Part shown: in pieces, positions 4,928 through 62,142 of the stretch | Layout of the letters: each line of letters begins with the position of its first letter | Numbering within the stretch: the first letter of the stretch is position 1 | From: Longimicrobiales bacterium | Lineage (GTDB): Bacteria > Gemmatimonadota > Gemmatimonadetes > Longimicrobiales > Gaopeijiaceae | Direction: 5' to 3' | Assembly: GCA_965116905.1 (NCBI GenBank) | Contig: OZ220732.1 | Location: 3,392,001 to 3,456,000, forward strand | DNA length: 64,000 bases | The notes under the pieces: generated by a model | The model's input: the letters and a program-made list of their open reading frames with translations, nothing else | What the model was told of the DNA's origin: nothing | Database searches by the model: none | Translations under genes and position numbers: made by a program

Positions 4928-6559
<1,632 letters not shown>

Positions 6560-11800: not shown

Positions 11801-13574
11801 GATCGGCCGAACTTGCGCCTGAGTTCGCCCAGGCCGAGCCTCACGATCGTCGGGCGGCCGTGGACGTCGTGGTACGGCAGTTCGGTCGCAAAGAGCTGGT
11901 CGAAGAGCTCCTGCATCTCGTCGTGCGAGAGGTCGCACCCGGCCTTGATCGCCGCTTTGCATGCGAAGCTCATCGCCACGCGCTCGTTCTGGTTGCGCGC
12001 GGAGTTCATCAGGTCGGAGCCGTGGGTGAGTTCGTGCAGCATCTCGCGCACGCACCGCTCCGCATCGAAGTACCGGTGGGGACTGGGGACCGCCTGCACG
12101 AGGATCGCGTCGTTTCCGAAGGGGGAGATTTCGAAACCGAGCGCCGCCAGCGGCTCGAGAATCGACTCGATGACTTCGACTTCCGGCTTCGTCAGGCGGA
12201 TCGCGATCGGAAAGAGCAGCCGCTGTCCCTCTGCGCCCCCGCGCTCGAAGCTCGCGATGATCCGCTCGTAGAGCACCCTTTCGTGCGCGGCGTGCTGGTC
12301 CACGATGATCAGGCCGTCCCGGGTCTCGGCGAGGATGAAGCTGTTGTGGACCTGGAGCAGCTCGGGACGCGGGGCCCGGCCGGCGGCGCCCTCCTCGGCC
12401 GGCGCGGAATCGCCTTCGCCTGGAGCCCCGCGTCGGAAGAGGTGCATCTGCGCGATGTCGTCCGCGGGATCGCCCGCACGGTCGCTCGCAGGATCGCCCG
12501 CACTGTCGCCCTCGAGGGTCGGGAAGCCCTCGCCCGTGCCCTCGCGGACGACATGAACCGGGCGCGGTCTGTCCAGGGTTGCCGCCGACTCGATTCCCTC
12601 CAGCGCCTTGCGGACGGAGGCCTCGACGAACTTCTCGATCCGGCTGCGGTCGCGGAAGCGGACCTCGGCCTTCCCCGGGTGCACGTTCACGTCCACCTCG
12701 CCCCCCGGCACGGTCAGGAACAGGAAGACCCACGGCCGCTTGTCCCGGGACACGGTGGTGCGGTACCCGCGGTCCGCCGCCCGGATGACCGCGGCGTCGC
12801 GGAACGGGCGCCCGTTAATGAAGAGGCCGGCGCGGCGGAAACCGGGCCGCGCCAGGTCGGGGCGCTGCACCACGCCGGCGAGCCGCATTCCCTGGTGCTG
12901 CGTGGACAGCGGCACGAGCCCCGCGTCCTCCGCGTCCTTCCAGGTCGCGCCGATCCGCGCAGCCAGAGAGCGGTCCGCCGGAAGGTCGAAGACGATGTCG
13001 CCGTTCACCTCGAAGATGAAGCGCGTGCCCAGATCGGCGAGCGCGAGCGCGTGGACCACCTCGGCGACGGCGCGCGTCTCCACCCGGGCGCTGCGCAGGA
13101 AGCGGGCGCGCACGGGCGTGTTCAGAAACAGGTTGCGCACGTCGACGGTGGTTCCCGGACGGCGCGCCGCGTCCTCGACCCCCTGGATCCGGCCGGCGAG
13201 CGACCGCAGCCGCGTGCCCGTCTCCTCGCCGTCCACCGCGGTCTCGACGACCATGCGCGACACCGCCGCAATCGATGGCAGCGCCTCGCCGCGGAAGCCG
13301 AGGGTGTGGATCTCCCGCAGGTCCTCGGCGTGCCGGATCTTGCTGGTGGCGTGCCGGTCCAGGCAGAGCAGAACGTCCTCGCGAACCATGCCGCAACCGT
13401 CGTCGGCCACGAGAATCCGCCCCTTCCCTCCCCTCTCGATCGACACCCGCACCACGCCCGCCCCCGCGTCCAGCGCGTTCTCGACCAGTTCCTTGACCAC
13501 CGAGGCCGGACGCTCGACGACTTCGCCCGCGGCGATCTGGTTCGCCACGTGGTCGGGAAGAACCCGGATCCGAT

Positions 13575-22511: not shown

Positions 22512-24896
22512 ATGTATGCCGCCTTTCCGTATTCGCCCACGACCAGGGCCGCCGCTCTGACGGCCACCCTCGCCGCCCTGACGGCCACCCTCGCCGCCCT
22601 CGCCGTCCTCGCCACCCTCGCCGTCCTCCCTGCCCTGCCCGCCGAGGCGCAGCAGCGCCCCTTCACGACTGAGGTCGCGCTCGACGTCAACCTGGTGGGC
22701 ATCGCGGCGGTCACGAGCGACGGCTCCCGCGTGGCCGCGACGGTGCGCACCCGGCGCGACCGCACCGATGTCGACCATCAGCGCTTCGGCGACCCCACGT
22801 ACATCTCGCCCACCTCGACCCGGCTGATGGTGATCGACACGCGGAGCGGCAACCGCACATGGGTGCACGAGGACCCGGCCCAGCTGCGCGGCTTCGCGTG
22901 GTCGCCCGACGGGGAGCGGCTGGCCTACTTCGCCGTCGAGGGCGGGGAGTACCGGCTCCGGATCTTCGACGCGCGCGCGGGCAGCGCCGAGACCGTGGCG
23001 CTCGGCACCGACAACGAGATCGCGTCGTCGTCGCCGCTCGTGTGGGCTCCCGATGCGTCCGGGGTGCTCCTCGGGCTGCGGCCGGCCGGGTGGGCCGAGG
23101 AGGCTCGCGCGGCCTTCGTAGCCCTGACCGAGGCGCCGGTGATCGTGCAGGATTCCCGCAACGACTTCCTGGCCTGGGACCGCGTGAGGAACATCGCCGC
23201 GCGGCAGATCATCGCGCTCGTCTCACTCGAAGACGGCGGCGGCGGCAGCAATGGCAGTGTGCGCGAAGTGCTGACCGGTGCGACGCCTTCCGGGCTGGGG
23301 TTCTCGGCCGACGGCTCGTACGTGACCTATTCGACGGCGACGCGCACGAAGACGTCGTACACGCGGCGGGACGGAACCGAGTACGCGCTGTACCGGCTCG
23401 ACCTTGCGGACGGCGGCGAGCCCGAGTTGCTGCGGGACACCGGCGAGGAGCGGATGGGTGTGACATGGAACGACGCGCGCGATGCGTTCGCGTACAGTGA
23501 GGACGGGTCGGTGTTTGTGCGCAGGCTGGATCAGGACGAGGCGGTCGACGTGACGGCGGCGCACCGGGGGGACGCGGAAGAGGCCGGTGGGGCCGACGCC
23601 GCTGCCGACGCCGACGCCGACGCCGACTCGGACTCCGCCGCCGACTCCGCCCGCATCCGCTTCTCCGTTCAGCGCTGGAGCCCGTCCGGGGACGCGCTGC
23701 TGCTCGCCTCGCAGGACGCCTGGCACCTGCTGGAGCCGGGCACGGGCCCCGCCAGCAACAACCTCCGCACCCTCCTCGAACTCGAGGACGACGAAGACGC
23801 CCGGCCCCGCCGCCAGGTTCAGGGCTGGCGCGACGACGGGCGCCACGTCCACTTTAGCTACTCCGCCCGCGACCGCTGGCAGCGCGGCCTGAAGCGCCTC
23901 GACACCGCCACCGGCGCCATCGAGACCCTGGTCCTGGACAGCAACCTCTACCGCTCCTGGAACGTCTCGGACGACGGCGGAACGGTCGTTTACACCATGT
24001 CCGACGGCGACCGCCCCGACGAGATCCACGTCGCGCGCGGCGACTTCCCGGCGGCTCGCCGGCTCACGACCTCCAACCCGGGGCTCGACGACGTCGCGCT
24101 CACCCGCAGCGAGCTCGTCGAGTACCTGGACGTCGACGGCAACACCCTCTACGGCATCCTCTACTACCCCGCCAACTACGAGCCCGGGCGCAAGTACCCG
24201 CTCGTGGCCGAGATCTACGAGCAGTTCTTCGACAACGGCTTCAACGAGAACATGAACCTGATCACCGCGCAGGGGTGGTTCGGGTTCCGCCCGTCGGTGC
24301 GCTTCGAGGAGGGATTTCCCGGCGAGGCGTGGCTGAAGGCCGTGCCCAACGCGATCAACAAGATCATCGAGCGGGGCCTCGTCGACCCCGACAGGGTGGG
24401 CGTCTACGGGCAGAGCTACGGGGGCTACGCGACCAACCTGCTGATCACCCAGACCGACCGTTTCGCGGCGGCGGCGAACGTGTCCGGCAAGGTGAACATC
24501 ATCTCGTTCCTGGGCGACTCGCCCAAGATCACGACGCGCAACTACGCGGCCGCCGAGGTCGGGCAGGACCGGATCGGCGCCACGCTCTGGGAGCAGCCGC
24601 ACAAGTATATCGAGCACTCGGCGGTCATGTTCGCGGACCGGATCGAGACGCCGCTGCTCATGCTTTCGGGCGAGGGCGACTGGAACGTGCCGGCCACCAA
24701 CCAGCGCGAGATGTACTACGCGCTCCGCCGGCTGGGGAAGGAGGTCGTGTGGGTGCACTACACCGCGGGCGGTCACGGAGCCGGGCGCGCCAGCACGGCG
24801 GCCGATTTCGCGGATCATTGGCAGCGCATGTTCGAGTGGTTTGCCGAGCACTTTGTTGATGAGGAGGAGAGCAGAGCGGCGACATCGGACCGGTGA
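22512..24896 (+). CDS. Secreted S9 family (prolyl oligopeptidase-like) peptidase
   Basis: Signal peptide ...PAEA-QQ; propeller repeats (WSPDG); GQSYGG nucleophile, GEGDWNV Asp, GGHG His. Confidence 0.9.
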   Translation: MYAAFPYSPTTRAAALTATLAALTATLAALAVLATLAVLPALPAEAQQRPFTTEVALDVNLVGIAAVTSDGSRVAATVRTRRDRTDVDHQRFGDPTYISPTSTRLMVIDTRSGNRTWVHEDPAQLRGFAWSPDGERLAYFAVEGGEYRLRIFDARAGSAETVALGTDNEIASSSPLVWAPDASGVLLGLRPAGWAEEARAAFVALTEAPVIVQDSRNDFLAWDRVRNIAARQIIALVSLEDGGGGSNGSVREVLTGATPSGLGFSADGSYVTYSTATRTKTSYTRRDGTEYALYRLDLADGGEPELLRDTGEERMGVTWNDARDAFAYSEDGSVFVRRLDQDEAVDVTAAHRGDAEEAGGADAAADADADADSDSAADSARIRFSVQRWSPSGDALLLASQDAWHLLEPGTGPASNNLRTLLELEDDEDARPRRQVQGWRDDGRHVHFSYSARDRWQRGLKRLDTATGAIETLVLDSNLYRSWNVSDDGGTVVYTMSDGDRPDEIHVARGDFPAARRLTTSNPGLDDVALTRSELVEYLDVDGNTLYGILYYPANYEPGRKYPLVAEIYEQFFDNGFNENMNLITAQGWFGFRPSVRFEEGFPGEAWLKAVPNAINKIIERGLVDPDRVGVYGQSYGGYATNLLITQTDRFAAAANVSGKVNIISFLGDSPKITTRNYAAAEVGQDRIGATLWEQPHKYIEHSAVMFADRIETPLLMLSGEGDWNVPATNQREMYYALRRLGKEVVWVHYTAGGHGAGRASTAADFADHWQRMFEWFAEHFVDEEESRAATSDR

Positions 24897-24963
24897 CCGA
24901 TGCCGCAACGGGGTGGTGGTGAGGGGCGTGCGGGAGGAGGCAGGAGATAGCGGGGGATCCAAA

Positions 24964-25956
24964 ATGAACCACGGCATGTTCGCTGTCTCGGGGCCGAGCA
25001 ACGGCCTCGCCGATCATTACATAGACGCGATTGCCGCCGCACTCGACAAGAGCCGGCGCCCGGCTACGCTGCGCGCCTACGAGCGCGCCTGGGAGCGCTT
25101 CAGGACCTGGGCGGTGTCGGAGGGGCTGGAGCCGCTCCCCGCCGATCCGCTGACCGTGGCGGCCTATCTGGCGTACAGGGCGGGCATCGGGCGTTCCCCT
25201 TCCACGCTGGCGCTGGACCGCAAGGCCATCAGCTACCACCACGGCAAGCTGGGGTATCCGTCGCCCACGGCGTCCGAGGGGGTCAAGGCCACGCTGGCGG
25301 GGCTCCGCAACCAGGCGGCGGAAGACGGCCGCGGCGACCCCAGGCAGGCGCGTGCGCTGACCGGGAGCGCGCTCCGGGCGATCGAGCGGACCGCGCACCG
25401 GCGGCGGCGGGGGCCCACGGGCCGGACGGAATCGCTCGGGGCCGCGAACCACCGGGGCGACGTGGACATCGCGCTGGCCTCGGTCATGCGGGACGCCCTG
25501 CTCCGAAGGGGCGAAGCCGCGCGGCTCCGCTGGGGCGAGGTGGAGTTCTGGTCGGACGGTTCGGCCCGCGTCGTCATCCGGCAGTCGAAGACCAGCAAAG
25601 CCTCTGCCGTCCTGTACGTCGGCACGCGCGCCGCGAAGGCGCTGCGGCACATCCGTCCGGCCGACGCCGACCCGGGCGACCGCGTCTTCGGTCTGCGCTC
25701 CGGCCGCTCGATCGCGAACCGGATCGCGGCCATGGCAAGGGCGGCGGGGCTGGGCGAGGGGTTCAGCGGGCACTCGCCGCGCATCGGCATGGCCCAGGAC
25801 CTCACGGCCGCAGGGGTCGGCCTGCCCGCGCTGATGGTGGCCGGACGCTGGAAGTCGGAGCGCATGCCGGCGTACTACAGCCGCGCGCAATCGGCCGGCC
25901 GCGGGGCCGTGGCGAACTTCTACGGGAACGGCGCGGCGCCGGGAGGCGGGCGCTGA
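24964..25956 (+). CDS. Cre-like tyrosine recombinase
   Basis: SAM-like N-domain (TLRAY...W.RF..W...LPADP..VAAYL); catalytic LLRRGE, SKT, SGHSPRIG, GRWKS..MPAYY with Trp in place of the second His as in Cre. Confidence 0.9.
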   Translation: MNHGMFAVSGPSNGLADHYIDAIAAALDKSRRPATLRAYERAWERFRTWAVSEGLEPLPADPLTVAAYLAYRAGIGRSPSTLALDRKAISYHHGKLGYPSPTASEGVKATLAGLRNQAAEDGRGDPRQARALTGSALRAIERTAHRRRRGPTGRTESLGAANHRGDVDIALASVMRDALLRRGEAARLRWGEVEFWSDGSARVVIRQSKTSKASAVLYVGTRAAKALRHIRPADADPGDRVFGLRSGRSIANRIAAMARAAGLGEGFSGHSPRIGMAQDLTAAGVGLPALMVAGRWKSERMPAYYSRAQSAGRGAVANFYGNGAAPGGGR

Positions 25957-25961
25957 CGGAC

Positions 25962-25995
25962 CTCTAAGTTAGCTAATTATCTAGCTACGTTAGAG
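25962..25995. other. lox-like 34-bp putative recombination site (13-8-13)
   Basis: CTCTAAGTTAGCT-AATTATCT-AGCTACGTTAGAG; arms 11/13 complementary; AT-rich; begins 5 nt after the recombinase stop codon. Confidence 0.65.
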
Positions 25996-26430
25996 ATTGA
26001 GGCCCCTCAGGTAGCCGCGGACTTCCGCGAGGCCTTGACGCAGGGTCTGCTGTTGCCTTCGCAGTGCGGCCTGCTGCCTTCGGAGTTCGTCCTGTTCTCT
26101 CTGGAGTTGGGCCTGTTCCCGGCGGAGGTTGGTCTGTTCCCGGCGGAGTTCGGTCTGTTCCCTCTGGAGGCCGGCGACCTTGTAGCCGATGTCGGCGACC
26201 TCGTGGCGGAGGTCGGAGCGTCGACGCAGTTCCCATGCCGATCGCGGATGGTAGGTGGATGATCTCATCACAAGGCAATCACTTCGCCCGGTGACCTGGC
26301 TTGGGCTCCCCGCCCACCTCTCCCAACCCACTCGGCGCAGTTCTTCGACTTTGTACCGCAAGACCGCCATCCCTGCCAAGGCAGTTCCCACACACGTTCC
26401 CGCTAGAACAGCGAATTGCCACCAATCCAT
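25990..26430 (-). CDS. Small TM + heptad coiled-coil protein (MDWWQ family, copy 1; possibly degenerate)
   Basis: GGAGG SD, ATG; N-terminal hydrophobic helix; L(R/Q)R(E/Q)Q heptad repeats encoded by 21-nt repeats; stop codon lies inside the lox-like arm. Confidence 0.55.
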   Translation of the reverse strand: MDWWQFAVLAGTCVGTALAGMAVLRYKVEELRRVGWERWAGSPSQVTGRSDCLVMRSSTYHPRSAWELRRRSDLRHEVADIGYKVAGLQREQTELRREQTNLRREQAQLQREQDELRRQQAALRRQQQTLRQGLAEVRGYLRGLNL

Positions 26431-26460
26431 AACCGCCTCCCCCCCACTTTGGCCCCTCTC

Positions 26461-26501
26461 CCCGTGCCGGTACTCGGTCCCGACCCACCGAAGGTACCGA
26501 C
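26461..26501 (-). repeat. Conserved leader/promoter element, copy 1 (copy 2 at 44762-44803)
   Basis: cccgtgccggt(act/gtt)cggtccc(c)gacccaccgaaggtaccgac shared; on the minus strand it contains TACCTT (-10-like) and folds as a hairpin. Confidence 0.75.
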
Positions 26502-26520
26502 GAACCACTTTCTTTGCGAG

Positions 26521-29500
26521 GTGGGGACGGTAACGGTGGAGAACATGGGCCTCGCGGGCGTGACTGTCATGCTTTCCGGCATGGCTGATGGTCAGACCAC
26601 GACCGACGACAGCGGCCAGTTCTCCTTCACGGGACTGCGCGCCGGCACGTATTCGGTCGAGATCTCCGGCTTCGACACCAACGAAGTCAGCTTCTCGAGC
26701 ACCTCCGGTGCCGCGACGGTCGGCGTCGGCGAGTCCAAGGTCGTCAGCTTCGACGGCACGTATCTCCGCACCGCGGGGATCCAGGGCCAGGTAAGCGTGG
26801 ACGGCGAGGGCCTCGGCGGCGTGACGGTGACGCTGGTGGGCGAAGGCGAAGAGCGGACCGACGTGACGGATGCGGGCGGGCTCTACGCGTTCTCGGCGCT
26901 TAAGAGCGGCACCTACCAGGTCGCGATCACGAACCCGGATCCCGAGGACTACGAGTTCACGACCACGTCGAAGAGCGCGACGGTCGCGACGGGCGAGACC
27001 GCCAACGTGCCGTTCGAAGGCACGCTGCTGCGGACGGCCGGTATCGCGGGCCGGGTCAGTCTCGACGACGGCATGGGCCTTGACGGCGTGACGGTTACGC
27101 TCGCGGGCGCAGCCGAGGCGACGGCGACGACGTCGAACGGCGGTCAGTACGCTTTTGCCGGGCTGGCGGCTGGCACCTACGTGCTCAGCATCGAGAACCC
27201 GGACGCCAACGCGTACAGCTTCGCCGAAGACGAGATGATGAAGACGGTCATGCTGGAAGACGACCAGTCTGCGATCGTCAACTTCAGCGGGACGCACACC
27301 CGCACCGCCTCGGTGTCGGGCATGCTGTTCGTCGACGAAGTGATGCAGGACAAGATGTACACCGACGGCGAGCCCACGATCGTCGCAGCGCTGGGACCCT
27401 GGTTGGGGTCGCTGGCCGACGATGACCCGGCGAAGATGGCCGTGCTCGGAGCGCTGGCCAAGGCGACGGTGAAGCTGCGCGGCCCGGATCTCAGCGACGA
27501 GCATGACATTCCCATCATGGCGGACGGCAGCTTCACGACGGGCCCGGCGCTGATGGCCGGTTCGTACCAGGTCGAGTTGCCGGTCAACGACGACGACGTG
27601 GCGGCGGGACTCGCCGCGGCAGGCGTCGCGTTTGTGGGCGAGTCGATGGTGGTCAACGTCGAGGCTGGCGGCAACGCGACGGTCAACTTCCCGTTCCGGA
27701 TCACGATGCAGACGGTGGTGACCGGTGCCCGCATGGGCGGCGGCGGCCACTTCGGTCTCCCGGTCGAGGGCGTGGAGCTGGCGCTGTACGCCCGGGCCGA
27801 CGGCACCGACATGCTGGGCGAGGCCACGACCGACGAGATGGGCATGGCCACGTTCAACTTCGCGCGCGCGGACAACACGGGTCCCGTGGGCAACGACAAC
27901 ATCGTATTCGTGAAGGCCATGGATTCGGGGCACCCGGCGCTGCACGTGAGCGGCAACGAGTTCGTCGAGATCAACCATGCGTCGACGGCGCGTCTCTACG
28001 CGGCGGACGCCGAGAAGGAAGTGGCGACGCTGATCAACGTGGCGGTCGCGTTCGACTTCTGGGTCAAGAGCAACGAGATGGCCCGCAACGGCGACGAGGG
28101 CCTCGGCGGCTGGAGCACCGAGGTCTACTTGGGCGATCCGGAGGACGAGGACAACATGCCTCTGATGCTTCCGAATCCCATGGATCCCACGATGATGGTC
28201 AACGCCACCCTGCCCACGGACACCACGAAGGGCGACGATCTGGGTAAGAGCACGTTCGCGTACGTGGCCGACCCGACGATGGTGGATTATCCCGTGACGT
28301 TCACGGTGATGGCGGCCATGGACGACGAGGCCGACTGTAAGGGATCGGGCCTGATGGCGGTATCCGATCAGCCCGACCAGTGCGAGATGTGGGAGCAGAG
28401 CGACGCGCTCACGCACACGCACACGGGGCTTGACCTTCCGCCGGGCAAGGACGACGACATGCTCGACCTCGGCCCCATCCGGATCACGTACACGACGCAG
28501 ACCGTCTACGTCGGCGCGCACCGTGAGCTGGACGACCGGACCGGGTTTACCGACTTCATCGGTGTCGGAGACGGCGATGCCCGTCCCATGGGCACCGGCG
28601 TGGACGAGATCGAGGTCAGCCTGATGGTCGCGGACAGCAGAGGGCGTCTCAGAGCCTTCGAGTATGACCACGACATGGACGAGGACACGGAGGATGTCGA
28701 AGCGACGGCGACCGTCGGCGCTTCGGGCATGGTGTCATTCGCCCACATTCCCGCCGATACCGAATTCACGGTCGTGGCCGATGCGGGCAGCGACATGATG
28801 ATCGTTCCCGACGATCGATCCACGAGGGAGATCGACGCGTTCGGCGATCAGCTGGACGACTATCCCGACGGCAAGATGGTCGGCGCCTTCGGTGACGGCA
28901 GCGGCGCGCGTGCGGACGTCTGGATCTGCCCGCTGTGGAGACTCGACAACGACGATCCCAACGAGAACTGCTCGACCTTCGCCTACAAGTGGGCGACCGG
29001 GACGATCTCGGGCGATATCGACGGTCTCCGCAAGGGCGACAAGGCGTCCGTGATCCTGACGCCGGTCAACAGTAACGAAGACTACGAGGACGACCTCGCG
29101 GACGACGACGAGATCACCGCCGGGACGGGCGGAGCGGCCAGCTACTCCTTCACGGGTGTTGCGGACGGCCGTTACATGGTCACGCTCGAAGCCAAAGCAG
29201 GAAGCTGGGAAGAGGACGAGACCAAAGTGCTCTCCGTCATGCACGACGAGGAAAGCGAAGACGAGGAATACACCGGCGCGACTGCGGGCGAGGACCTGTC
29301 CGCCAGCGACCTGCGCGGCGTGATCCGTGGCCGGATCGCGAACGACTCGAATGGCCGAGCGGGCCTGACGAGCGACGAGTCCAGGGCCGGCGTCGTGGTG
29401 GAGATCTACTCGGCGAAGAAGGTCGGTGGATCAGGCACCACCAAGAACAACTACGTGCCCGACGAAGCCGTGACGGACGCGGACGGCGACGAGGTGATGG

Positions 29501-31014: not shown

Positions 31015-31056
31015 GTTGCCCCCGTCCGGTTCGCCGGGCGGGGGCAACACCGTTTT
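31015..31056 (+). terminator. Hairpin/terminator after surface protein copy 1
   Basis: gttgcccccgtccgg-TTCG-ccgggcgggggcaac then accgtttt. Confidence 0.75.
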
Positions 31057-31122: not shown

Positions 31123-34100
31123 ATGGACAGGCTCAGGAGGTTCCTGGGAATGGCGACGTTGCTGGTGCTTCCGATCATCGCCGCGTGCGGAGAGGACGTC
31201 ATTCCTCCTCCGCCGACGGGCTCCATCGTGGGCCAGGTGTCGATCGAGGGCATGGGGATCGACGGGGTAACCGTCTCCCTTAGCAACGGGGCCTCCACTG
31301 CTACGGCTGGTGGCGGGAACTACCGCTTCGACACCGTGGAGCAGGGCTCCTATACGGTGACGATCAGCGGATTCCCCGCGGACGCCAGCTTCGATGCAAC
31401 CTCAGCTCCCGCCAGCATAGGCGACACCGGCGGGACGGTCACCGTGGACTTCCGCGGCACCTATATCCGCACCGCCTCGATCCTCGGAACGATCACTGTT
31501 GAGGGCAGCGGTCTCGGCGGGGTGACGGTGCGCCTTCCCGGCATGGCTGATGGCCAGACCACGACCGACGACAGCGGCCAGTTTTCCTTCACGGGACTGC
31601 GCGCCGGCACGTATTCGGTCGAGATCTCCGGCTTCGACACCAACGAGGTCAGCTTCTCGAGCACCTCCGGTGCCGCGACGGTCGGCGTCGGCGAGTCCAA
31701 GGTCGTCAGCTTCGACGGCACGTATCTCCGCACGGCGGGGATCCAGGGCCAGGTAAGCGTGGACGGCGAGGGCCTCGGCGGCGTGACGGTGACGCTGGTG
31801 GGCGAAGGCGAAGAGCGGACCGACGTGACGGATGCGGGCGGGCTCTACGCGTTCTCGGCGCTCAAGAGCGGCACCTACCAGGTCGCGATCACGAACCCGG
31901 ATCCCGAAGACTACGAGTTCACGACCACGTCGAAGAGCGCGACGGTCGCGACGGGCGAGACCGCCAACGTGCCGTTCGAAGGCACGCTGCTGCGGACGGC
32001 CGGTATCGCGGGCCGGGTCAGCCTCGACGACGGCATGGGCCTTGACGGCGTGACGGTTACGCTGGCGGGCGCGGCCGAGGCGACGGCAATGACGTCGAAC
32101 GGCGGGCAGTACGCTTTTGCCGGGCTGGCGGCTGGCACCTACGTGCTCAGCATCGAGAACCCGGACGCCAACGCGTACAGCTTCGCCGAAGACGAGATGA
32201 TGAAGACGGTCATGCTGGAAGACGACCAGTCTGCGATCGTGAACTTCAGCGGCACGCACACCCGCACCGCTTCGGTGTCGGGCATGCTGTTCGTCGACGA
32301 AGTGATGCAGGACAAGATGTACACCGACGGCGAGCCCACGATCGTCGCAGCGCTGGGACCCTGGCTGGGGTCGCTGGCTGACGATGACCCGGCGAAGATG
32401 GCCGTGCTCGGAGCGCTGGCCAAGGCGACGGTGAAGCTGCGCGGCCCGGATCTCAGCGACGAGCATGACATTCCCATCATGGCGGACGGCAGCTTCACGA
32501 CGGGCCCGGCGCTGATGGCAGGGTCGTACCAGGTCGAGTTGCCGGTCAATAACGACACCGTGGCGGCGGGTCTCGCCGCGGCAGGCGTCGCGTTCGTCGG
32601 CGAGTCGATGGTGGTCGACGTCGAGGCTGGCGGCAGCGCGACGGTCAACTTCCCGTTCCGGATCACGATGCAGACGGTGGTGACCGGTGCCCGCATGGGC
32701 GGCGGCGGCCACTTCGGTCTCCCGGTCGAGGGCGTGGAGCTGGCGCTGTATGCCCGGGCCGACGGCACCGACATGCTGGGCGAAGCCACGACCGACGAGA
32801 TGGGCATGGCCACGTTCAACTTCGCGCGCGCGGACAACACGGGTCCCGTGGGCAACGACAACATCGTATTCGTGAAGGCCATGGATTCGGGGCACCCGGC
32901 GCTGCACGTGAGCGGCAACGAGTTTGTCGAGATCAACCACGCGTCGACGGCGCGTCTCTACGCTGCGGACGCCGAGAAGGAAGTGGCGACGCTGATCAAC
33001 GTGGCGGTCGCGTTCGACTTCTGGGTCAAGAGCAACGAGATGGCCCGCAACGGCGACGAGGGCCTCGGCGGCTGGAGCACCGAGGTCTACTTGGGCGATC
33101 CGGAGGACGAGGACAACATGCCTCTGATGCTTCCGAATCCCATGGATCCCACGATGATGGTCAACGCCACCCTGCCCACGGACACCACGAAGGGCGACGA
33201 TCTGGGTAAGAGCACGTTCGCGTACGTGGCCGACCCGACGATGGTGGATTATCCCGTGACGTTCACGGTGATGGCGGCCATGGACGACGAGGCCGACTGT
33301 AAGGGATCGGGCCTGATGGCGGTATCCGATCAGCCCGACCAGTGCGAGATGTGGGAGCAGAGCGACGCGCTCACGCACACGCACACGGGGCTTGACCTTC
33401 CGCCGGGCAAGGACGACGACATGCTCGACCTCGGCCCCATCCGGATCACGTACACGACGCAGACCGTCTACGTCGGCGCGCACCGTGAGCTGGACGACCG
33501 GACCGGGTTTACCGACTTCATCGGTGTCGGAGACGGCGATGCCCGTCCCATGGGCACCGGCGTGGACGAGATCGAGGTCAGCCTGATGGTCGCGGACAGC
33601 AGAGGGCGTCTCAGAGCCTTCGAGTATGACCACGACATGGACGAGGACACGGAGGATGTCGAAGCGACGGCGACCGTCGGCGCTTCGGGCATGGTGTCAT
33701 TCGCCCACATTCCCGCCGATACCGAATTCACGGTCGTGGCCGATGCGGGCAGCGACATGATGATCGTTCCCGACGATCGATCCACGAGGGAGATCGACGC
33801 GTTCGGCGATCAGCTGGACGACTATCCCGACGGCAAGATGGTCGGCGCCTTCGGTGACGGCAGCGGCGCGCGTGCGGACGTCTGGATCTGCCCGCTGTGG
33901 AGACTCGACAACGACGATCCCAACGAGAACTGCTCGACCTTCGCCTACAAGTGGACGTCGGGGACGGTCTCGGGTGCCGTAACGCGTCTTCAGGAAGGCG
34001 ACGAAGCGGCCGTGATCCTGATGCCGGTCAACAGCAACGAAGACTATGCGTCCGATCTCAAGGATGAGGTCGAGGTGACCGCCGGCGAAGACGGAACAGC

Positions 34101-35910
34101 CGATTACTCCTTCACGGGCGTCGCGGACGGACGGTACATGGTCATCTTGGAGGCCACTACAGGATCATGGCGCGGCGACACCATCCAGGTCGGCGGTGTA
34201 ATGCACGACGAAGAAAACGACGAAGACCACTACACCGGCGACGTCAGCAGCGGCAACGACTTGTCGGCCAGCGACCTGCGCGGCGTGCTGATCGGCAGGA
34301 TCGCCAATGACGTGAACGGGAACGGCTCTCTGAACGGCGACGAGTCACGCGCTGGTGTCGTGGTCGAGATCTACCACGCACCGGGCAACATCACCAGGGG
34401 ATTCGTTCAGGGTGATGCGGTCACGGATAAGAACGGTGATCCGGTTACGGCCACCACTGACGAGGACGGTAACTACCGATTCGAGGATCTTGAGCTTCGG
34501 CAGAGTGACGGCGGTCAAAAGTTCTATCTGGTGAGGGTTCCGGAAACGGATCTGTACAAGGCCGTGAGGAACACCCCGATAGGGCTGAAAGACGTTGAAC
34601 TCCGGGAGGTCGTGGATTACGCCATCCATCCAGCGATCACCGCCGATGTCGCCGATCATGAATGGAATACGCTCTATCCTGACCTCCCCACGTGGGATTA
34701 CTCCACAAGCATGCTCGGTGCTAGCGCGCTGAGCGATTTCGTGCTGCTCTACAAGGACGGCGAAGTCGAGGGCACGGTGTCGGATCCGAGCGTACGGGCC
34801 GCGCATCAGCGCGCGGTCGTAGAGCTGCACCGCTGCAAGGTTTCGAACCAAGTGAGGGGCGGGTGCGACGAGTACTCCGGCGAAGTCGAGGAAGCGTCCG
34901 TGAACTCGGACGGCGAGTGGCTCGCGGAAAACCTTCTGGAGGGCATATGGGAGGTCGTCGTGGACCTGCCGGCCGGGTATGTGCACGTCGACGCGAGCGG
35001 GCGCACCGACGGCGACACCGGTTTCAACGACGACGACAGCTACTTCAGTCAGCAGGACATCGAACTGATGGGCGGTCGTGCGGACGCCGGCACCGAGACG
35101 TTCCACATCAAGGATCGCAACGCGGGTGACGGCGCTACGCTTACGAGTGTCGAGATCGACGGTACTGCGTGCACCAGGGGCACCGCCACCAACCCTGCGG
35201 ACGAAAACTGCGGCCATGACGAGGACGGATCGTTCTCGGTGGTCGCTACCGCGTCCACGGGCGCGGTCGTCCGTCTGAGTTCGAGTGCGACGGACGCGAG
35301 TCCCACCGGAACGGGGACGTACTCGCAGACATTGAGAAACGGCAGAGCCACGACGGTCACGCTGTCGATGCCTGGCAGCAGGAGGTTCTTCGTTCACGTC
35401 ACGGCCGAGGACGGTTATGCGTCCAACGACGCGACGAGTGAGGGCTTCCATCTCCGGCGCGACGCCGATGTGCGCGTGAAGGAAGTCACGATCTCGTGGA
35501 GCGGCGACAGGATCGAACTGGATCGTGACGCGCTCAACTTGGATCCCGACGGTGAGACGGACCCGGTGACGGGGACGACCACCCTGAGGGTCACGGTGGA
35601 CAAGGGCGACAACAACGGGGATATCCCGATTACGGATCTTACAGTTACAGCCACCAGCATGACCACGGGATTCGGCGTGGCCGGATTTGGCACCGTCGAC
35701 GTGACCACGACTCCCGTCGCGTGTTCCAGCGCGGACTTCACCGGCCTCGCCGGCACAGCATCGGGCACCCTCACGTTGCCGGCGAACACGGCGACCGACA
35801 AGGGAAGCGACGGGGTCTGCTTCCGGATCGCGGACACCGACGGTGAGACGAACCCGGACGCCAACGCCAACAACAACCGCGACTACATCCTGATCGTCAC
35901 CAGGAAGTAG
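31123..35910 (+). CDS. Giant acidic surface lipoprotein (1595 aa) with carboxypeptidase-regulatory-like/CnaB-type beta-sandwich repeats
   Basis: AAGGA SD; MDRLRRFL...IIAAC lipobox; repeated G.I.GQV..G..GVTV.L......TT...G.Y.F..L..G.Y.V units; Asp/Thr/Gly-rich. Confidence 0.88.
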   Translation: MDRLRRFLGMATLLVLPIIAACGEDVIPPPPTGSIVGQVSIEGMGIDGVTVSLSNGASTATAGGGNYRFDTVEQGSYTVTISGFPADASFDATSAPASIGDTGGTVTVDFRGTYIRTASILGTITVEGSGLGGVTVRLPGMADGQTTTDDSGQFSFTGLRAGTYSVEISGFDTNEVSFSSTSGAATVGVGESKVVSFDGTYLRTAGIQGQVSVDGEGLGGVTVTLVGEGEERTDVTDAGGLYAFSALKSGTYQVAITNPDPEDYEFTTTSKSATVATGETANVPFEGTLLRTAGIAGRVSLDDGMGLDGVTVTLAGAAEATAMTSNGGQYAFAGLAAGTYVLSIENPDANAYSFAEDEMMKTVMLEDDQSAIVNFSGTHTRTASVSGMLFVDEVMQDKMYTDGEPTIVAALGPWLGSLADDDPAKMAVLGALAKATVKLRGPDLSDEHDIPIMADGSFTTGPALMAGSYQVELPVNNDTVAAGLAAAGVAFVGESMVVDVEAGGSATVNFPFRITMQTVVTGARMGGGGHFGLPVEGVELALYARADGTDMLGEATTDEMGMATFNFARADNTGPVGNDNIVFVKAMDSGHPALHVSGNEFVEINHASTARLYAADAEKEVATLINVAVAFDFWVKSNEMARNGDEGLGGWSTEVYLGDPEDEDNMPLMLPNPMDPTMMVNATLPTDTTKGDDLGKSTFAYVADPTMVDYPVTFTVMAAMDDEADCKGSGLMAVSDQPDQCEMWEQSDALTHTHTGLDLPPGKDDDMLDLGPIRITYTTQTVYVGAHRELDDRTGFTDFIGVGDGDARPMGTGVDEIEVSLMVADSRGRLRAFEYDHDMDEDTEDVEATATVGASGMVSFAHIPADTEFTVVADAGSDMMIVPDDRSTREIDAFGDQLDDYPDGKMVGAFGDGSGARADVWICPLWRLDNDDPNENCSTFAYKWTSGTVSGAVTRLQEGDEAAVILMPVNSNEDYASDLKDEVEVTAGEDGTADYSFTGVADGRYMVILEATTGSWRGDTIQVGGVMHDEENDEDHYTGDVSSGNDLSASDLRGVLIGRIANDVNGNGSLNGDESRAGVVVEIYHAPGNITRGFVQGDAVTDKNGDPVTATTDEDGNYRFEDLELRQSDGGQKFYLVRVPETDLYKAVRNTPIGLKDVELREVVDYAIHPAITADVADHEWNTLYPDLPTWDYSTSMLGASALSDFVLLYKDGEVEGTVSDPSVRAAHQRAVVELHRCKVSNQVRGGCDEYSGEVEEASVNSDGEWLAENLLEGIWEVVVDLPAGYVHVDASGRTDGDTGFNDDDSYFSQQDIELMGGRADAGTETFHIKDRNAGDGATLTSVEIDGTACTRGTATNPADENCGHDEDGSFSVVATASTGAVVRLSSSATDASPTGTGTYSQTLRNGRATTVTLSMPGSRRFFVHVTAEDGYASNDATSEGFHLRRDADVRVKEVTISWSGDRIELDRDALNLDPDGETDPVTGTTTLRVTVDKGDNNGDIPITDLTVTATSMTTGFGVAGFGTVDVTTTPVACSSADFTGLAGTASGTLTLPANTATDKGSDGVCFRIADTDGETNPDANANNNRDYILIVTRK

Positions 35911-35967: not shown

Positions 35968-36008
35968 GTCGCCCCCGTCCGGTTCGCCGGGCGGGGGCGA
36001 CGTCTTTT
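35968..36008 (+). terminator. Hairpin/terminator after surface protein copy 2
   Basis: gtcgcccccgtccgg-TTCG-ccgggcgggggcgac then gtctttt; one compensatory T-A to C-G change relative to copy 1. Confidence 0.8.
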
Positions 36009-44539: not shown

Positions 44540-44751
44540 CGCCCCGGCCGAGCCCAGGACGTGCGCGCGAAAGTCCTGCCGAAGCGTGTCCACGGAGCGG
44601 GTCACGCCCCGTCAGTTCTCCGCGAATCTCCGCGTGAGCCTTGCGGTTTTCGCGGCGCAGGTTTTCCACCATGCGCCAGCCGAATGCCCATCACCCCCAC
44701 AATGCTCAAGACGAACGTCCCCATCAGACCCGCGGCCTGCCACCAATCCAT
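44540..44751 (-). pseudogene. Frameshifted MDWWQ family copy 2
   Basis: MDWWQAAGLMGTFVLSIVGVMGI, then in other frames WRMVENLRRENRKAHAEIRGELTG and VTRSVDTLRQDFRAHVLG; homologous to 25990-26430; 3' limit approximate. Confidence 0.55.
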
Positions 44752-44761
44752 CCGTCCTCCT

Positions 44762-44803
44762 CCCGTGCCGGTGTTCGGTCCCCGACCCACCGAAGGTACC
44801 GAC
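44762..44803 (-). repeat. Conserved leader/promoter element, copy 2
   Basis: Matches 26461-26501; TTGCGG-N18-TACCTT on the minus strand. Confidence 0.75.
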
Positions 44804-52887: not shown

Positions 52888-52910
52888 CTCCGGTGGACCC
52901 GGATGGGCCG

Positions 52911-55463
<2,553 letters not shown>

Positions 55464-55547
55464 CCCTCATGCAATCACATAGCGGGCCCCGGAGCGGGCT
55501 CCAGAACCGACAGCCGGATTCCAACCCAAGGAGGAGGTGAGTACCAC

Positions 55548-56399
55548 GTGTCCAATCGATTCAACGTGTCCGAGCGATTGAAGGTGTCCAATCGGGTCAT
55601 CGTTCTAGGCGTTTCCTTCTTGGCCGGAGTGCTGTGGGTCGCGCTGCTTACGGTCCTGTTGTCCGGAAACCCCGAGAGTACAGCGGCCGATCTGCTCCTG
55701 GACCGGAATACCCGACTGTTTCCGTATCCGTTCACCATCCAGAACCTGATGTGGATCGTCTTCAGCATGGCGGCCGGGGAGCTTGTCGTCAGGCTCATGG
55801 CAGGGCGGCGCGAGAAAGAGCAGCTTGCGCTGGGACTGTTGCCGGAGGACCACCGGACCGTCTTTCGCCAACGGGACATCGGGCCCGTCTACCGGCGTGT
55901 GAGCGAGTCTGACCCCGACGGGCAGTTCTGGTTGCAACGCCTGCTTTCCGGCTCTCTGCTCCAATACCAGAGCACCGGTTCGATCGAGCAGGTCAGCACC
56001 ATGCTGAACATGTCACTGGAACTTTGCCAGAACGAGATAGAGCTGCGATACAACATGCTTCGCTACTACGTCTGGCTCATCCCCACACTCGGATTCGTCG
56101 GCACGGTCATGGGGATCGCTTTCGCGTTGCGGACGGCTGGCACCGTGTTTGCCGGTGCCGACCCGACATCCGATATGGTGTCGATAGGACCAACCATGAT
56201 GGAGGGCATGACGGCCGACCTGGGAGTCGCGTTCTATACGACGCTGCTCGCCTTGCTGCAGTCCGCCGTGCTGATGTTCGCCCTGCACCTGATGCATGAG
56301 CGCGAGGAGCGGGCTCTCAACCGCGTTGGCCAGTACTGCCTGAAGAACCTGGTCAACCGCCTCTACGAACCAAACGCCGGACATGAACAGAAGGCCTGA
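55548..56399 (+). CDS. MotA/TolQ/ExbB family proton-channel protein
   Basis: AGGAGGT SD, GTG start; LIPTLGFVGTVMGI and LGVAFYTTLLAL helices; 4 TM segments. Confidence 0.88.
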   Translation: MSNRFNVSERLKVSNRVIVLGVSFLAGVLWVALLTVLLSGNPESTAADLLLDRNTRLFPYPFTIQNLMWIVFSMAAGELVVRLMAGRREKEQLALGLLPEDHRTVFRQRDIGPVYRRVSESDPDGQFWLQRLLSGSLLQYQSTGSIEQVSTMLNMSLELCQNEIELRYNMLRYYVWLIPTLGFVGTVMGIAFALRTAGTVFAGADPTSDMVSIGPTMMEGMTADLGVAFYTTLLALLQSAVLMFALHLMHEREERALNRVGQYCLKNLVNRLYEPNAGHEQKA

Positions 56400-56435
56400 C
56401 CGGGCAACCCACAACGAACACGGAGGATGACAGAC

Positions 56436-56936
56436 ATGCCGTTGCGACGAGACGACGAAGGGAAGGTAGTTTTCGAACAGACCAAGGCGAACCCGGCCAA
56501 GAAGAAGGGCGGAAGCGCGCCGAGCGACCAGGCCACGGTGCTGCGGCGGAGTGCGGGGGAAACGATCAAGGGCGCCATGGGCGATCCGCCGGTGGGATGG
56601 CTCGTGATCGTGGGCGGCCCCGGGAAAGGCAGTTTCGTAAAGCTCGGTGTCGGCGCGAACGCCATCGGACGGAAGAACAGTGACGAGAACCGGGTGGTGC
56701 TGGACTACGGGGACAAGACGATCTCGCGCGTGCGGCATTGCGTCGTCGCGTACGACCAGGAAAACCGGAAGTTCTTCCTCCAGCACGACAGGGGAACTCA
56801 TCTCGTGTACATCGGCAGCGAGCCCGTCCTTTCGGTTCAGGAGCTGAAACCCGGCATGCACATTCGAATCGGACGGACGGACCTGCGTTTTGTGCCGGTG
56901 TGCGGGCCCGATTTCGATTGGGACGGGGACGGCTGA
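56436..56936 (+). CDS. FHA domain protein
   Basis: GGAGGA SD; PVGWLVIVGGPGKG....L......IGR...D.TISR..H..V.YD motifs; EL..G..IRIGRT.LRF. Confidence 0.85.
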   Translation: MPLRRDDEGKVVFEQTKANPAKKKGGSAPSDQATVLRRSAGETIKGAMGDPPVGWLVIVGGPGKGSFVKLGVGANAIGRKNSDENRVVLDYGDKTISRVRHCVVAYDQENRKFFLQHDRGTHLVYIGSEPVLSVQELKPGMHIRIGRTDLRFVPVCGPDFDWDGDG

Positions 56937-56940
56937 AGCC

Positions 56941-57771
56941 ATGGCAAGCCGGGACAATCCCAGGCGCTACGGCGATCGGGTTGCGGGAGGTCAGATCATC
57001 GGTGCTCGGAAGCGCCAGGAGGATGACTTTCACGTGGTCAGGTTGATCGACGACGGAGATCAGTGTGCGCATCTCATGATACTGGCGGACGGGATGGGCG
57101 GGCATCCTGGTGGTGTGGAAGCCAGCGGCGTCGCGGTCTCGGCCTTCGCCGACGCATTCAAGGCGGCGAAGTGGGAAGGAACGGCCGAGCGTCTACGCGC
57201 TTCTCTCGATGCGGCCGATGCGGCCGTCGCTCAGCATTCGGACCAGCATGACGGCTATTCCGGGATGGGTTGCACACTTGTGGCCTGTGTCGTGATGAAA
57301 GACGGGACAGCGCTATGGACCAGCGTGGGAGATTCACTGCTGTTCCACTTGCCCGCCGGTCGTAGCCGCACCGTAACTCGTCTCAATGAAGATCATTCGA
57401 TGCGGCCAGTGCTGGAGGACATGGTCCGCCTGGGCCGCATGACGCCCGAGGAGGCCGAACACGGCCCGGTCAACCAGTTGCGCTCTGCGTTGACGGGCGA
57501 GGGTCTGACGCTCGTCGACGAAGGGGCGGAAGCGGTCGAGCTGAAGGCCGATGACTGGCTCATCGTGGCTAGCGATGGGCTGAACACGCTGCAGGCGGAC
57601 GAATTACGGCAGCTCTGCGACGAACACCGAACTCCCTACACCGTGGTTTCCGAGCTATTGATGGCTGTCACGGAGCGGGCCAGGACCGCGCAGGACAACA
57701 CCACCGTCATTGCCTATCGGCACTCGCGCGGTTCGTCGAGGTCCCTGTGGCAGCGCCTCTTCAGCCGATAG
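56941..57771 (+). CDS. PP2C/PPM family Ser/Thr phosphatase
   Basis: R..QED, LADGMGGH..G..AS, GCT, VGDS, DHS, ASDGL, QDNTT motifs. Confidence 0.93.
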   Translation: MASRDNPRRYGDRVAGGQIIGARKRQEDDFHVVRLIDDGDQCAHLMILADGMGGHPGGVEASGVAVSAFADAFKAAKWEGTAERLRASLDAADAAVAQHSDQHDGYSGMGCTLVACVVMKDGTALWTSVGDSLLFHLPAGRSRTVTRLNEDHSMRPVLEDMVRLGRMTPEEAEHGPVNQLRSALTGEGLTLVDEGAEAVELKADDWLIVASDGLNTLQADELRQLCDEHRTPYTVVSELLMAVTERARTAQDNTTVIAYRHSRGSSRSLWQRLFSR

Positions 57772-57790
57772 CGCCGGCCCTGGTCCGCAA

Positions 57791-58666
57791 CTACAGCAGG
57801 GACAGCAAGAGGTTGACGGTGAGCGAACCGCCGGTGTCCCGCACGAACTGGCCGCCGCCCACGTTGGCGACACGTTCAAGAAACGACTCCACTGTGCCGC
57901 CGCCAACGCCCGTCTCCACATAGACCGTAGAGATCCGGTAGCCGCCCGATCCGGAGAGATTGTTCGCCAGGGCGAAAGTCTGGGTGACGTCCTCCGGGTA
58001 GCCCGGACTGTCGGTGATCAGCACGATCGCTCGCTCTTCCGCCTGTGGGCGCCAGGACATCCCAACGGCTTGGTTCAGCGCCATCAGGAAAGCCTCGGGA
58101 ACGTCGGAGTTCACGCCGCCGCCCCTTCCCACGCCGATCTCGAGCTCGTTCACGAAGTCCCTGAACGCCGCGAGATTGCCGGGCGACCCGCTTATCTCGC
58201 GCAAATCGAATGTCGTGAGGGGTTCTTCAAAGAACCGGTCGCCAAACGCGACAAGACCGATGCCCAGAGTCGGGGACAGACGGCTCAGGACTTCGCTCAG
58301 CTGGCCCACTTCGGACTTCAGGTCTTCGATCTGCTGGCCCATGCTGCTGGTGATATCCAACGCGATGACCAGGTCGAAGTGCGGAAACTGGGTCCTGGCC
58401 AGGTCCTGAGTGGGTTCGGGACATGTCACCGGGGTGACGACCGGACACACCGGGCAGACGACGGGATCGGGGCAGGGCGTCGGCTCCTCGGGCTCCGCGG
58501 GGGGCGGGCAAACGGGGCAGACGACCGGATCCACGGGCGTCGGGGAGGTATTCGGAAAGTACGGGAAGATCACGACCGATATGAGGATGAACGCACCCAG
58601 CGCGGATGCGAACAGGTCCAGCGCCGACATCCCGAAGATGCTGATTTCCCGATTGCGTCGTCTCAT
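57791..58666 (-). CDS. vWA domain protein with MotB/ExbD-like N-terminal TM and Cys/Pro linker
   Basis: MRRRNREISIFGMSALDLFASALGAFILISVVIFPYF (Asp at TM start); VCPVCP repeats; MIDAS LDITSSM, D.PE, LITD. Confidence 0.85.
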   Translation of the reverse strand: MRRRNREISIFGMSALDLFASALGAFILISVVIFPYFPNTSPTPVDPVVCPVCPPPAEPEEPTPCPDPVVCPVCPVVTPVTCPEPTQDLARTQFPHFDLVIALDITSSMGQQIEDLKSEVGQLSEVLSRLSPTLGIGLVAFGDRFFEEPLTTFDLREISGSPGNLAAFRDFVNELEIGVGRGGGVNSDVPEAFLMALNQAVGMSWRPQAEERAIVLITDSPGYPEDVTQTFALANNLSGSGGYRISTVYVETGVGGGTVESFLERVANVGGGQFVRDTGGSLTVNLLLSLL

Positions 58667-58754
58667 GTTCTGTCTCCGGTGAACGGATTGTTGTTGCGAA
58701 TAGTCGTCGCGCCCTGGGGGATGCGGACGCGAAGCCGGCTGTGCCGGTTCATGC

Positions 58755-60800: not shown

Positions 60801-60810
60801 GCCTGCGACT

Positions 60811-62142
60811 TCAGCGACGTCGCGTGTACACCAGCAGCACGCCGTTCGTGCCCTGGCGTCCGTACCGGGCTGCGGCATCTATGGGCGGAACAAACTGCAC
60901 GCTGGCGATGTCACTGGGCGAAATCAGAGAGGTCAGAGCGAATTCCGTTGCCAACGGGACATCGTCGATAAACACGGCGACGGCGTTCGCGCAGGGGTCG
61001 CCACCACGCACGGTCCCCGCTGATCGATACGTCAGACAAATGCCTTGCCTGCTCATCGTCGTGGGATCCAACATCTGGCCGATGCGCAGCCCCGGGATCC
61101 GTGCGCTTCGAATGACGCCCTCAAAATCAAACACTCGATAGCGCAGCGAATCCATCGAGGCTTCGGTCAAGCCCAGGTAGCGTGCCGCGCCGCCGGCGCC
61201 CCGTTGACGCTGGCCTGTGGCGACGATCGGCTCCAACTCGATGGCATCCACTGACAACTGGATGTCCAATCCCAGGGCGTCGCCGAGGGCCGTCAACGAA
61301 TCGGTCCGGGTAGTGTACCCAAGTTGCCTCGTCTCGATGATCTGTTGACCCGGCGGCACGTTGGTGAAGCGAAACTCCCCGTTTGGACCCGTAAAGGTGG
61401 CGATCCCCGCGCCAACGAGCGATACCGTTACACCCTCGATGCCGGTGCCCGTGGTGTAGTCCGTCACCGACCCCGCCAATGTCACGGGCGCCGAGATGCG
61501 AATCGGCAGATCATGAGTCTGGGAACCGGACCCGGAAACCTGCACGGGATCGCTGCTGTTCGCCCCGAACATGGCTTGAATCGTGATTCCCTGACCGGAG
61601 TCCAGATTACAGAGCCGATACTCGCCTGACGCCCCTGTGCGGGCTGTGGCGATGACCCTCTGATCCTGCGGAAGCTCCGGGTCGTCGCTCAATGCCTGTA
61701 CGGTGGCGCCCAGAAGGGGACCGCCTCCCATGTCCGCGGCAACGGTCCCTTCAAGGTTCAGGTTCCCGCTGCCCTGTTCACCCAGGCACCAAGTCGCGAG
61801 CATCGTTCGCCGCGAAGGCCCGGCCAGGTACACATCCGTTGTCGAATTGGCCGCGACGCCGATTCGCTGCGGCGTGCCGTTCGCGCTGACGGCCGCAAGC
61901 CGGGGGTGGAAGAACGAAATGACGGCGTCCCCCAAGGGAACGTTGTCGATTTGGAACCGCCCGTCGTCTCCCGTCGTGGTCGTCAACCCCGTACCCATGA
62001 TGTAGACCTGGGCGTCGGGCAGCGGTTCGCCGGCGATGCTGTCGTAGACGAGTCCGATGACGGTCTGTGCGCTTGCGAGGCCGGGTGATCCCAAGCCGTA
62101 GGCGATGGCGAGCGCCAGAATTGCTCTTCCGAGCCTGGTCAT
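60811..62142 (-). CDS. Secreted protein with carboxypeptidase-regulatory-like repeats and C-terminal TonB-plug-like domain, no beta-barrel
   Basis: Signal ...LASA-QT; G.V.D...G.PL..A.V...T...G.F repeats; C-terminal VFIDDV....ISPSDIASVQFV....AAARYG..G.NGVLLVYTRR. Confidence 0.75.
   Translation of the reverse strand: MTRLGRAILALAIAYGLGSPGLASAQTVIGLVYDSIAGEPLPDAQVYIMGTGLTTTTGDDGRFQIDNVPLGDAVISFFHPRLAAVSANGTPQRIGVAANSTTDVYLAGPSRRTMLATWCLGEQGSGNLNLEGTVAADMGGGPLLGATVQALSDDPELPQDQRVIATARTGASGEYRLCNLDSGQGITIQAMFGANSSDPVQVSGSGSQTHDLPIRISAPVTLAGSVTDYTTGTGIEGVTVSLVGAGIATFTGPNGEFRFTNVPPGQQIIETRQLGYTTRTDSLTALGDALGLDIQLSVDAIELEPIVATGQRQRGAGGAARYLGLTEASMDSLRYRVFDFEGVIRSARIPGLRIGQMLDPTTMSRQGICLTYRSAGTVRGGDPCANAVAVFIDDVPLATEFALTSLISPSDIASVQFVPPIDAAARYGRQGTNGVLLVYTRRR

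Follow-up and report, generated by a model that had tools for sequence, protein, structure and literature searches.

The window analysed here is a 64,000-nucleotide stretch of a Longimicrobiales chromosome (genome G000; contig OZ220732.1, positions 3,392,001 to 3,456,000). It carries a recombinase gene, rec1, followed by an AT-rich palindrome, a small convergent ORF, a long open frame without a start and a full-length paralogue of that frame (Table 1).

Table 1. Features of the rec1 region, in window coordinates
Feature	Position	Strand	Remarks
rec1, 330 aa, Cre-clade tyrosine recombinase	24964..25956	+	ORF, alignment, profile, fold
AT-rich imperfect palindrome (34-mer)	25962..25995		hairpin between two convergent stop codons
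Small ORF, 146 aa, MDWWQ family	25990..26430	-	hydrophobic N-terminus, coiled-coil repeats
~50-bp element upstream of MDWWQ-family ORFs	26455..26506	-	repeated in relatives and at window 44756
Candidate site A	26511..26541	+	left arm 26511-26522, spacer GGGGACG 26523-26529, right arm 26530-26541; codons GTVTVE
Silent 3' cassette A, 1,479 open codons	26524..30963	+	Ig-like (SdrD_B / CarboxypepD_reg); start and signal peptide absent
GC-rich hairpin after cassette A, likely terminator	31015..31048	+	repeated at 35968-36001 after copy B
Full-length paralogue B	31123..35910	+	own signal peptide; 94% DNA identity to cassette A, variable part

The rec1 recombinase and the palindrome that follows it

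The original prediction described the product of rec1 as Cre-like with an intact R-K-H-R-W-Y set, and both statements held. In the alignment, R181, K209, H270, R273, W296 and Y305 matched the Cre catalytic set, as listed in the consulted part of PMC10250229, and the six residues were conserved in 120-121 of 121 aligned sequences (the query and its best 120 homologues). Pfam placed a Phage_integrase domain and a weak SAM-like domain. The only solved relatives in a single-sequence search were Cre and Tre, and a 99-sequence rec1 profile matched Cre over its full length at E 3e-43, compared with 7e-11 for XerD. The alignment-based structure model (pLDDT 93.9) gave a TM of 0.76 to Cre and of 0.43-0.60 to XerA, IntI and lambda Int. 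At about 20% identity to Cre, the protein falls within 300-400 aa and has the Cre fold, and Cre is a closer match than Xer or lambda Int; it terminates ~25 aa past the catalytic Tyr, with no C-terminal extension beyond that fold. Judged by alignment and fold model, rec1 is an intact Cre-clade tyrosine recombinase. Full-length plasmid matches were at best about 30% identical to it, and no relatives were found in phage records or viral contigs. Retrieval of related loci gave 50, 40 of them with an Ig-like gene within 6 kb. One related recombinase fragment, in a Rhodothermales record (L047), is bracketed by a 15-bp inverted repeat (5725-5740 and about 12081-12096); no Ig-like gene is present there, and the repeat may be due to chance or mark another invertible unit.

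The 34-mer had been proposed as a lox-like target of the enzyme, and its description was accurate: it starts 5 nt past the rec1 stop codon, is complementary at 11 of 13 arm positions around an 8-bp spacer, and has 22 A+T, a composition reached by 0.13% of 34-mers in the window. Its left end coincides with that of a lineage-restricted ~545-bp insert, which comprises the palindrome, the small ORF and the upstream element, in agreement with the junction position originally claimed; a contig of run X2 likewise skips 25963-26458. The TAA of the convergent ORF does lie within the right arm of the palindrome. These features fall within the rules for mining Cre-type sites in the consulted part of PMC10250229 (arms of 13-15 bp separated by 8 bp, no more than two asymmetries, a distance of at most 1 kb from the gene), which had about 50% success.

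Comparison with relatives gave a different picture from these local features. No second copy had been seen in the window, and none was found in the 4.2-Mb genome at up to 8 mismatches. Half-sites at 2 mismatches gave scattered, unpaired matches, except for a TAAGC-type repeat at 1264321. The genome contains 185 13-8-13 palindromes with at least 11/13 complementary positions, 11 of which have at least 18 A+T. In L001, a 93% identical orthologue, the stop codon is 58 bp from the in-gene site described below, and palindrome and small ORF are absent; G034 also lacks the insert. In L002 (92%) the spacer measures 9 bp and the best 13-8-13 score is 7/13, so that the proposed conservation beside close homologues failed. 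The window and L002 palindromes can each form a hairpin (z -2.1 to -3.3); the hairpin is thus retained and the lox geometry lost. The 581-bp stretch after rec1 was matched in 8 of 52 other genus genomes, across the palindrome only in G041, where it is the form with the 9-bp spacer and the 7/13 score. When homologous recombinases were checked for a similar palindrome on their 3' side, a 13-8-13 of at least 10/13 was present near the stop in 4 of 51 genes; three were GC-rich and the fourth unrelated, and none resembled that of rec1.

It is very unlikely that the palindrome serves as a lox-type site or secondary binding site of rec1, or is a relic of how the small ORF and accessory region were placed. 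Its right 12 nt match the right arm of the in-gene site at 9 of 12 positions, and this likeness, like the position at the insert edge and the agreement with the mining rules, would favour such a role. However, three invariant positions are broken, 9/12 matches to that arm number 2,429 in the genome, and the palindrome arms score 1.9 and -11.3, whereas true sites score at least 16.2. The palindrome is single-copy and absent from two relatives, its spacing and arms are lost in a third, and the in-gene site passes the tests that it fails. On these comparisons it is probably not the rec1 crossover site. Most likely, in our view, it arrived with the small ORF and acts as a hairpin or a stop-rich buffer separating the convergent genes. 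This reading is weakly supported, because a scan for sigma-70 promoters and classic terminators found none; a terminator role thus has no consensus pattern behind it. Rfam gave no match over window 24800-26700 at E up to 1.

Other identities for the palindrome were considered and rejected. The dif site has an 11-6-11 plan and lies at the terminus; the GC-skew turning points are near 0.85 and 2.9 Mb, and the palindrome is at 3.42 Mb. The attC site is longer, with RYYYAAC...GTTRRRY cores; the palindrome measures 34 bp, has one core broken whichever strand is read, and is absent after other small MDWWQ-type ORFs. Its central 21-mer had 13 matches in metagenomes, all from one 35%-GC repeat that had neither the outer arms nor a recombinase, and these were set aside as chance.

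Pfam gave no convincing family for the MDWWQ ORFs, copies of which are scattered among relatives. The ORF occurs with its conserved 50-bp upstream element at window 25990-26506, at window 44700-44803 and in L146, and six copies lie within 10 kb of G055. The 50-bp repeat was rejected as a cassette site, being the upstream element of this family. Another 13-8-13 palindrome family, with TTGTC...GACAA-type ends, has three members within 12 kb of G000 (1612463, 1623030 and 1624308) and one directly after the L035 recombinase; it may represent an operator or the site of another recombinase.

A candidate recombination site inside predicted lipoprotein genes

The start of headless cassette A, ~560 bp past the palindrome, coincides with candidate site A. 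The site plan comprises a variable left arm, the 7-bp spacer GGGGACG and a conserved right arm, GTAACGGT. Copy B lacks the site because its junction codons are recoded. Beyond the window on the minus strand, 54 kb from A, lies a complete gene, D, which encodes 1,624 aa with SdrD_B and CarboxypepD_reg domains and a lipobox-like IIAAC (assigned by eye) and carries the site at codon 123 (G000 3472526). A further headless cassette, E, has the site at its first codon (G000 3605172), 133 kb from D, and adjoins rec2, a paralogue 67% identical to rec1. Both A and E are inverted relative to the gene D site. The first 1.2 kb or so of the cassettes consists of similar repeats, and the cassettes look mosaic.

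Several other features occur in the same region. Headless cassette C (G000 3463300-3467416) is convergent with the expressed tail of D and 83% identical to it, and has lost the site. Inside the D-E segment, beyond D, G000 3482000-3493000 holds an integrase, VirB-like genes of conjugation type (by eye) and small mobile genes. The ORFs at window 52893-60878, all named by eye, include a Ser/Thr kinase that carries EAERQA and leucine-rich repeats, MotA/ExbB-like, FHA-like, PP2C-like and vWA-like ORFs, and another LRR protein.

A search of 53 genus genomes with the pattern GGGACRGTAACRGTVG returned 85 sites in 28 genomes; the reversed control returned 4. The 73 sites fetched came from 21 genomes, the other 12, on fragmented assemblies, being left out. 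All 73 lay at the same gene junction and none elsewhere: 45 started a headless cassette, 21 joined a gene start to a cassette, and 7 joined a gene start to a dead end of 10-27 codons. Five spacer positions were fixed by the search pattern and two were free, and the genomes are kin, so these counts are not independent. For silent sites the best dyad placed a 7-bp spacer before GTAAC, and the left arms were partly symmetric (mean 3.8-4.4 of 7, compared with a median of 1.6 in other registers).

Codon usage at the junction was followed in 31 junctions found by protein homology, with the motif unused. GTA encoded the site Val in 30 of the 31, and the equivalent Val of repeats 2 and 3 in none of them; the genome-wide frequency of GTA is 5.5%. 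Among 15 hand-picked stand-alone full-length copies, GTA occurred in one. By this measure the constraint at the junction acts on DNA, not on protein.

Motif and recombinase occurred together: 25 genomes had both, 4 the recombinase only, 3 the motif only and 21 neither (Fisher p 6e-8, a significance exaggerated by the relatedness of the genomes). The discordance of G003 is due solely to a variant spacer. Of the 53 genomes, 49 have the gene start. A site lay within 450 bp upstream or 800 bp downstream of 34 of 49 recombinase genes; the other 15 had none nearby. The expectation of a Cre-type enzyme with a nearby site was borne out, and the choice of the palindrome, single-copy and not conserved, as that site was not. 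With a relaxed pattern, five genomes yielded further spacer types, matched within each module (variants in G003, G009 and G055), and G055 has four modules with four spacers. In viral contigs the motif had 29 matches, none with an Ig-like gene or recombinase, and these were discarded.

Variant arrangements were also seen. In L027, L031, L033, L037, L042 and L045 a second recombinase paralogue with no site nearby lies ~9.5 kb from ON/OFF modules. The expression sites of L087 (G041), L129 and L128 (G056) have five G in place of four, and the reading frame is shifted as a result. In G041 and G056 the extra G is also present in the site that follows the rec1 orthologue, whereas other G056 sites lack it, and it recurs at a junction in G034; it is possibly a second, slipped-strand OFF switch. 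G049 and G008 have no close recombinase and gave 19 and 15 gene-start matches, mostly with long open frames. The eight copies read from these two genomes lacked the site, and gene expansion may there be an alternative to shuffling.

Orientation, spacer matching and signs of crossing-over

Of 45 silent cassettes, 44 had a gene-start site on the same contig. Within 200 kb of that site, 36 of 38 were inverted to it, at distances of 1.7-197 kb. Cassettes lying the same way as the nearest gene-start site made up 2 of 38 near cassettes and 3 of 6 far ones. The two free spacer positions were identical between partners in all 38 pairs (shuffling gave means of 27.5 and 30.8 and did not attain 38 in any of 5000 rounds), and the base just outside the spacer matched in 7 of the 38.

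Both orientations of one segment were observed in a paralogous module, whose enzyme is about 60% identical. In L046 a 1.85-kb segment with the recombinase, promoter region and gene start is reversed compared with L030, L083, L084, L025 and L039. The breaks fall at two sites, the left and right flanks are exchanged, and the junctions are reciprocal. One such module was ON and seven, by the strict pattern, were OFF. In orientation comparisons, the module interiors of G057, G059, G047 and G064 showed duplicated flanks.

The rec1 locus itself is tied to an expression site in G034, where the gene start reads across the spacer into the downstream flank of the rec1 orthologue, in reverse-complement orientation. 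The C-terminus of that orthologue is readable at the junction, which lies about 120 bp from a contig end. This junction fixes both spacer edges, so that the spacer is 7 bp, and would represent a wrong-way (head-to-head) product linking the rec1 locus to the expression site. The rec1 locus carries three different cassette types in G000, G041 and G056. On a cassette tree (quick method, 64 rows, 11 of them under half filled), expressed cassettes did not group (their 19 rows needed 19 label changes, compared with a mean of 16.6 after shuffling), and one clade of 9 cassettes, E included, was silent in every genome.

The contig that spans rec1 in run X1 stopped at 26537, the final base that the sites have in common, and other records began at the shared edge of site D, leaving the A left flank as a loose end; the E junction appeared unbroken. 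Breaks at both shared-site edges suggest mixed junctions in the population. For inversion of the 54-kb A-D segment of this genome, the contig evidence is suggestive only.

A proposed mechanism of tail exchange

Taken together, the site, orientation and spacer data make it probable that a Cre-type recombinase drives shufflon-type exchange of tails at the in-gene site. In this scheme rec1 and its paralogues would bind the conserved right arm and the loosely symmetric left arm, and strand exchange across the 7-bp spacer would invert the segment between two sites, joining one fixed gene start to one among several alternative tails. A 54-kb inversion would thereby provide tail A with the promoter, signal peptide and first domain of D (122 aa); rec1, which lies outside that segment, would catalyse it alone or with rec2. 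Spacer identity would select partners, and differing spacers would insulate modules from one another, as with heterospecific lox sites. At any time the cell would make one chimeric lipoprotein or, in the dead-end state, a ~135-aa stub. We infer the assignment of individual enzyme paralogues to individual sites. Such exchange would probably serve to phase-vary a surface protein, as a defence against phages or a host; both surface location and phage/host role are proposed from domain content and analogy.

The same sites might be attachment sites at which small mobile elements, each a cassette plus its recombinase, integrate or copy themselves, inversion being secondary. Most cassettes have their own recombinase within 200 bp, tandem cassette-recombinase units occur in L004, L005 and L009, identical cassette segments stand at two places in G014 and in G045, and the head-to-head G034 junction is not an inversion product. 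We nevertheless give this account little credence: integration into an expressed gene would leave direct repeats, whereas 36 of 38 cassettes are inverted, reciprocal inversion junctions exist, and the recombinase has no relative in phage records or viral contigs. Mobile-unit integration may be the route by which new cassettes arrive. Least probable is RecA-type homologous recombination with the recombinases as bystanders: the long similar repeats and mosaic appearance of the cassettes would suit it, but dead-end partners have only the short site in common, spacers co-vary, and fixation of the rare codons is confined to the junction and largely to genomes that have a recombinase.

Site-specific tail exchange by inversion has its closest parallel in the R64 shufflon (Rci/sfx). 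There, according to the consulted part of PMC11852207, inversion swaps C-terminal segments onto the constant 5' part of pilV, and the sfx site is asymmetric, with a 7-bp spacer, a conserved spacer and right arm and a variable left arm. The genus system resembles it in having a constant 5' part, alternative inverted 3' segments at repeated in-gene sites, and a proposed site with the same asymmetry, spacer length and arm pattern. Unlike R64, whose locus is compact, plasmid-borne and terminal in a pil operon, it is chromosomal; its cassettes are 4-8 kb long and 2-200 kb apart, with several recombinase paralogues and spacer types per genome. Unlike Rci, the enzyme belongs to the Cre clade and appears to lack the extra C-terminal domain, as judged from the end-to-end match to Cre. 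The orientation bias would fit an Rci-like, inversion-only outcome, and the G034 junction points to at least one other.

The enzyme matches Cre and the mined Cre-type recombinases (Vika, Nigri, Panto, the YR series) in full-length sequence and fold. It also shares with Cre-type pairs the six catalytic residues and a site adjoining the gene, as far as the consulted part of PMC10250229 describes them. Unlike loxP, the proposed site is asymmetric, has a 7-bp spacer and lies in coding sequence. Inversion switching by a recombinase beside a set of surface-lipoprotein genes is shared with Mycoplasma vpma, vsp and vsa (Xer1, Mbr, HvsR). For vpma, the consulted part of PMC2268961 reports a tyrosine recombinase beside surface-lipoprotein genes that switches expression from one promoter by inversion, with sites in the 5' untranslated region, a 9.6-kb locus and one enzyme. 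The system described here has its site at codon 123, dispersed cassettes and an enzyme of the Cre clade. Intragenic invertons have breakpoints inside genes that widen coding capacity, according to the abstract of bioRxiv 10.1101/2023.03.11.532203. Compared with them at the level of that abstract, the present system differs in its dedicated site, enzyme family and cassette library, which recur genus-wide. A literature search, with subscription journals mostly outside its reach, found no paper on this Cre-clade tail-switching system. Neither the taxon nor the arm was found in one supplementary text file of PMC10250229; a table of ~500 pairs possibly lies outside that file.

More broadly, a Cre-clade family may have been recruited across the genus as a genome-scale shufflon, with asymmetric 7-bp-spacer sites, no Rci extra domain, inversions of up to 200 kb, tails of 1,400-2,700 aa and up to four spacer-insulated switches per genome. 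We regard this wider proposal as evenly balanced. If correct, it would be a natural counterpart of heterospecific lox designs.

If tail exchange operates as proposed, an uncultured Longimicrobiales (Gemmatimonadota) lineage would gain a defined surface-variation system, whose switch states could be counted in existing long-read data. A Cre-type enzyme acting on asymmetric, shufflon-like sites would also bear on how inversion bias arises without the Rci extra domain. Genome engineering would gain dozens of naturally occurring enzyme/site pairs, in several spacer types. The case of the palindrome is a warning that searching for palindromes beside Cre homologues can pick the wrong site. Relatives are present in one sponge metatranscriptome, which points to a possible sponge habitat.

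Identical expressed and silent cassette segments were found in G014 (52827 and 4603980) and in G045 (1712668 and 919978). They may reflect copying, or the merging of two inversion states during assembly.
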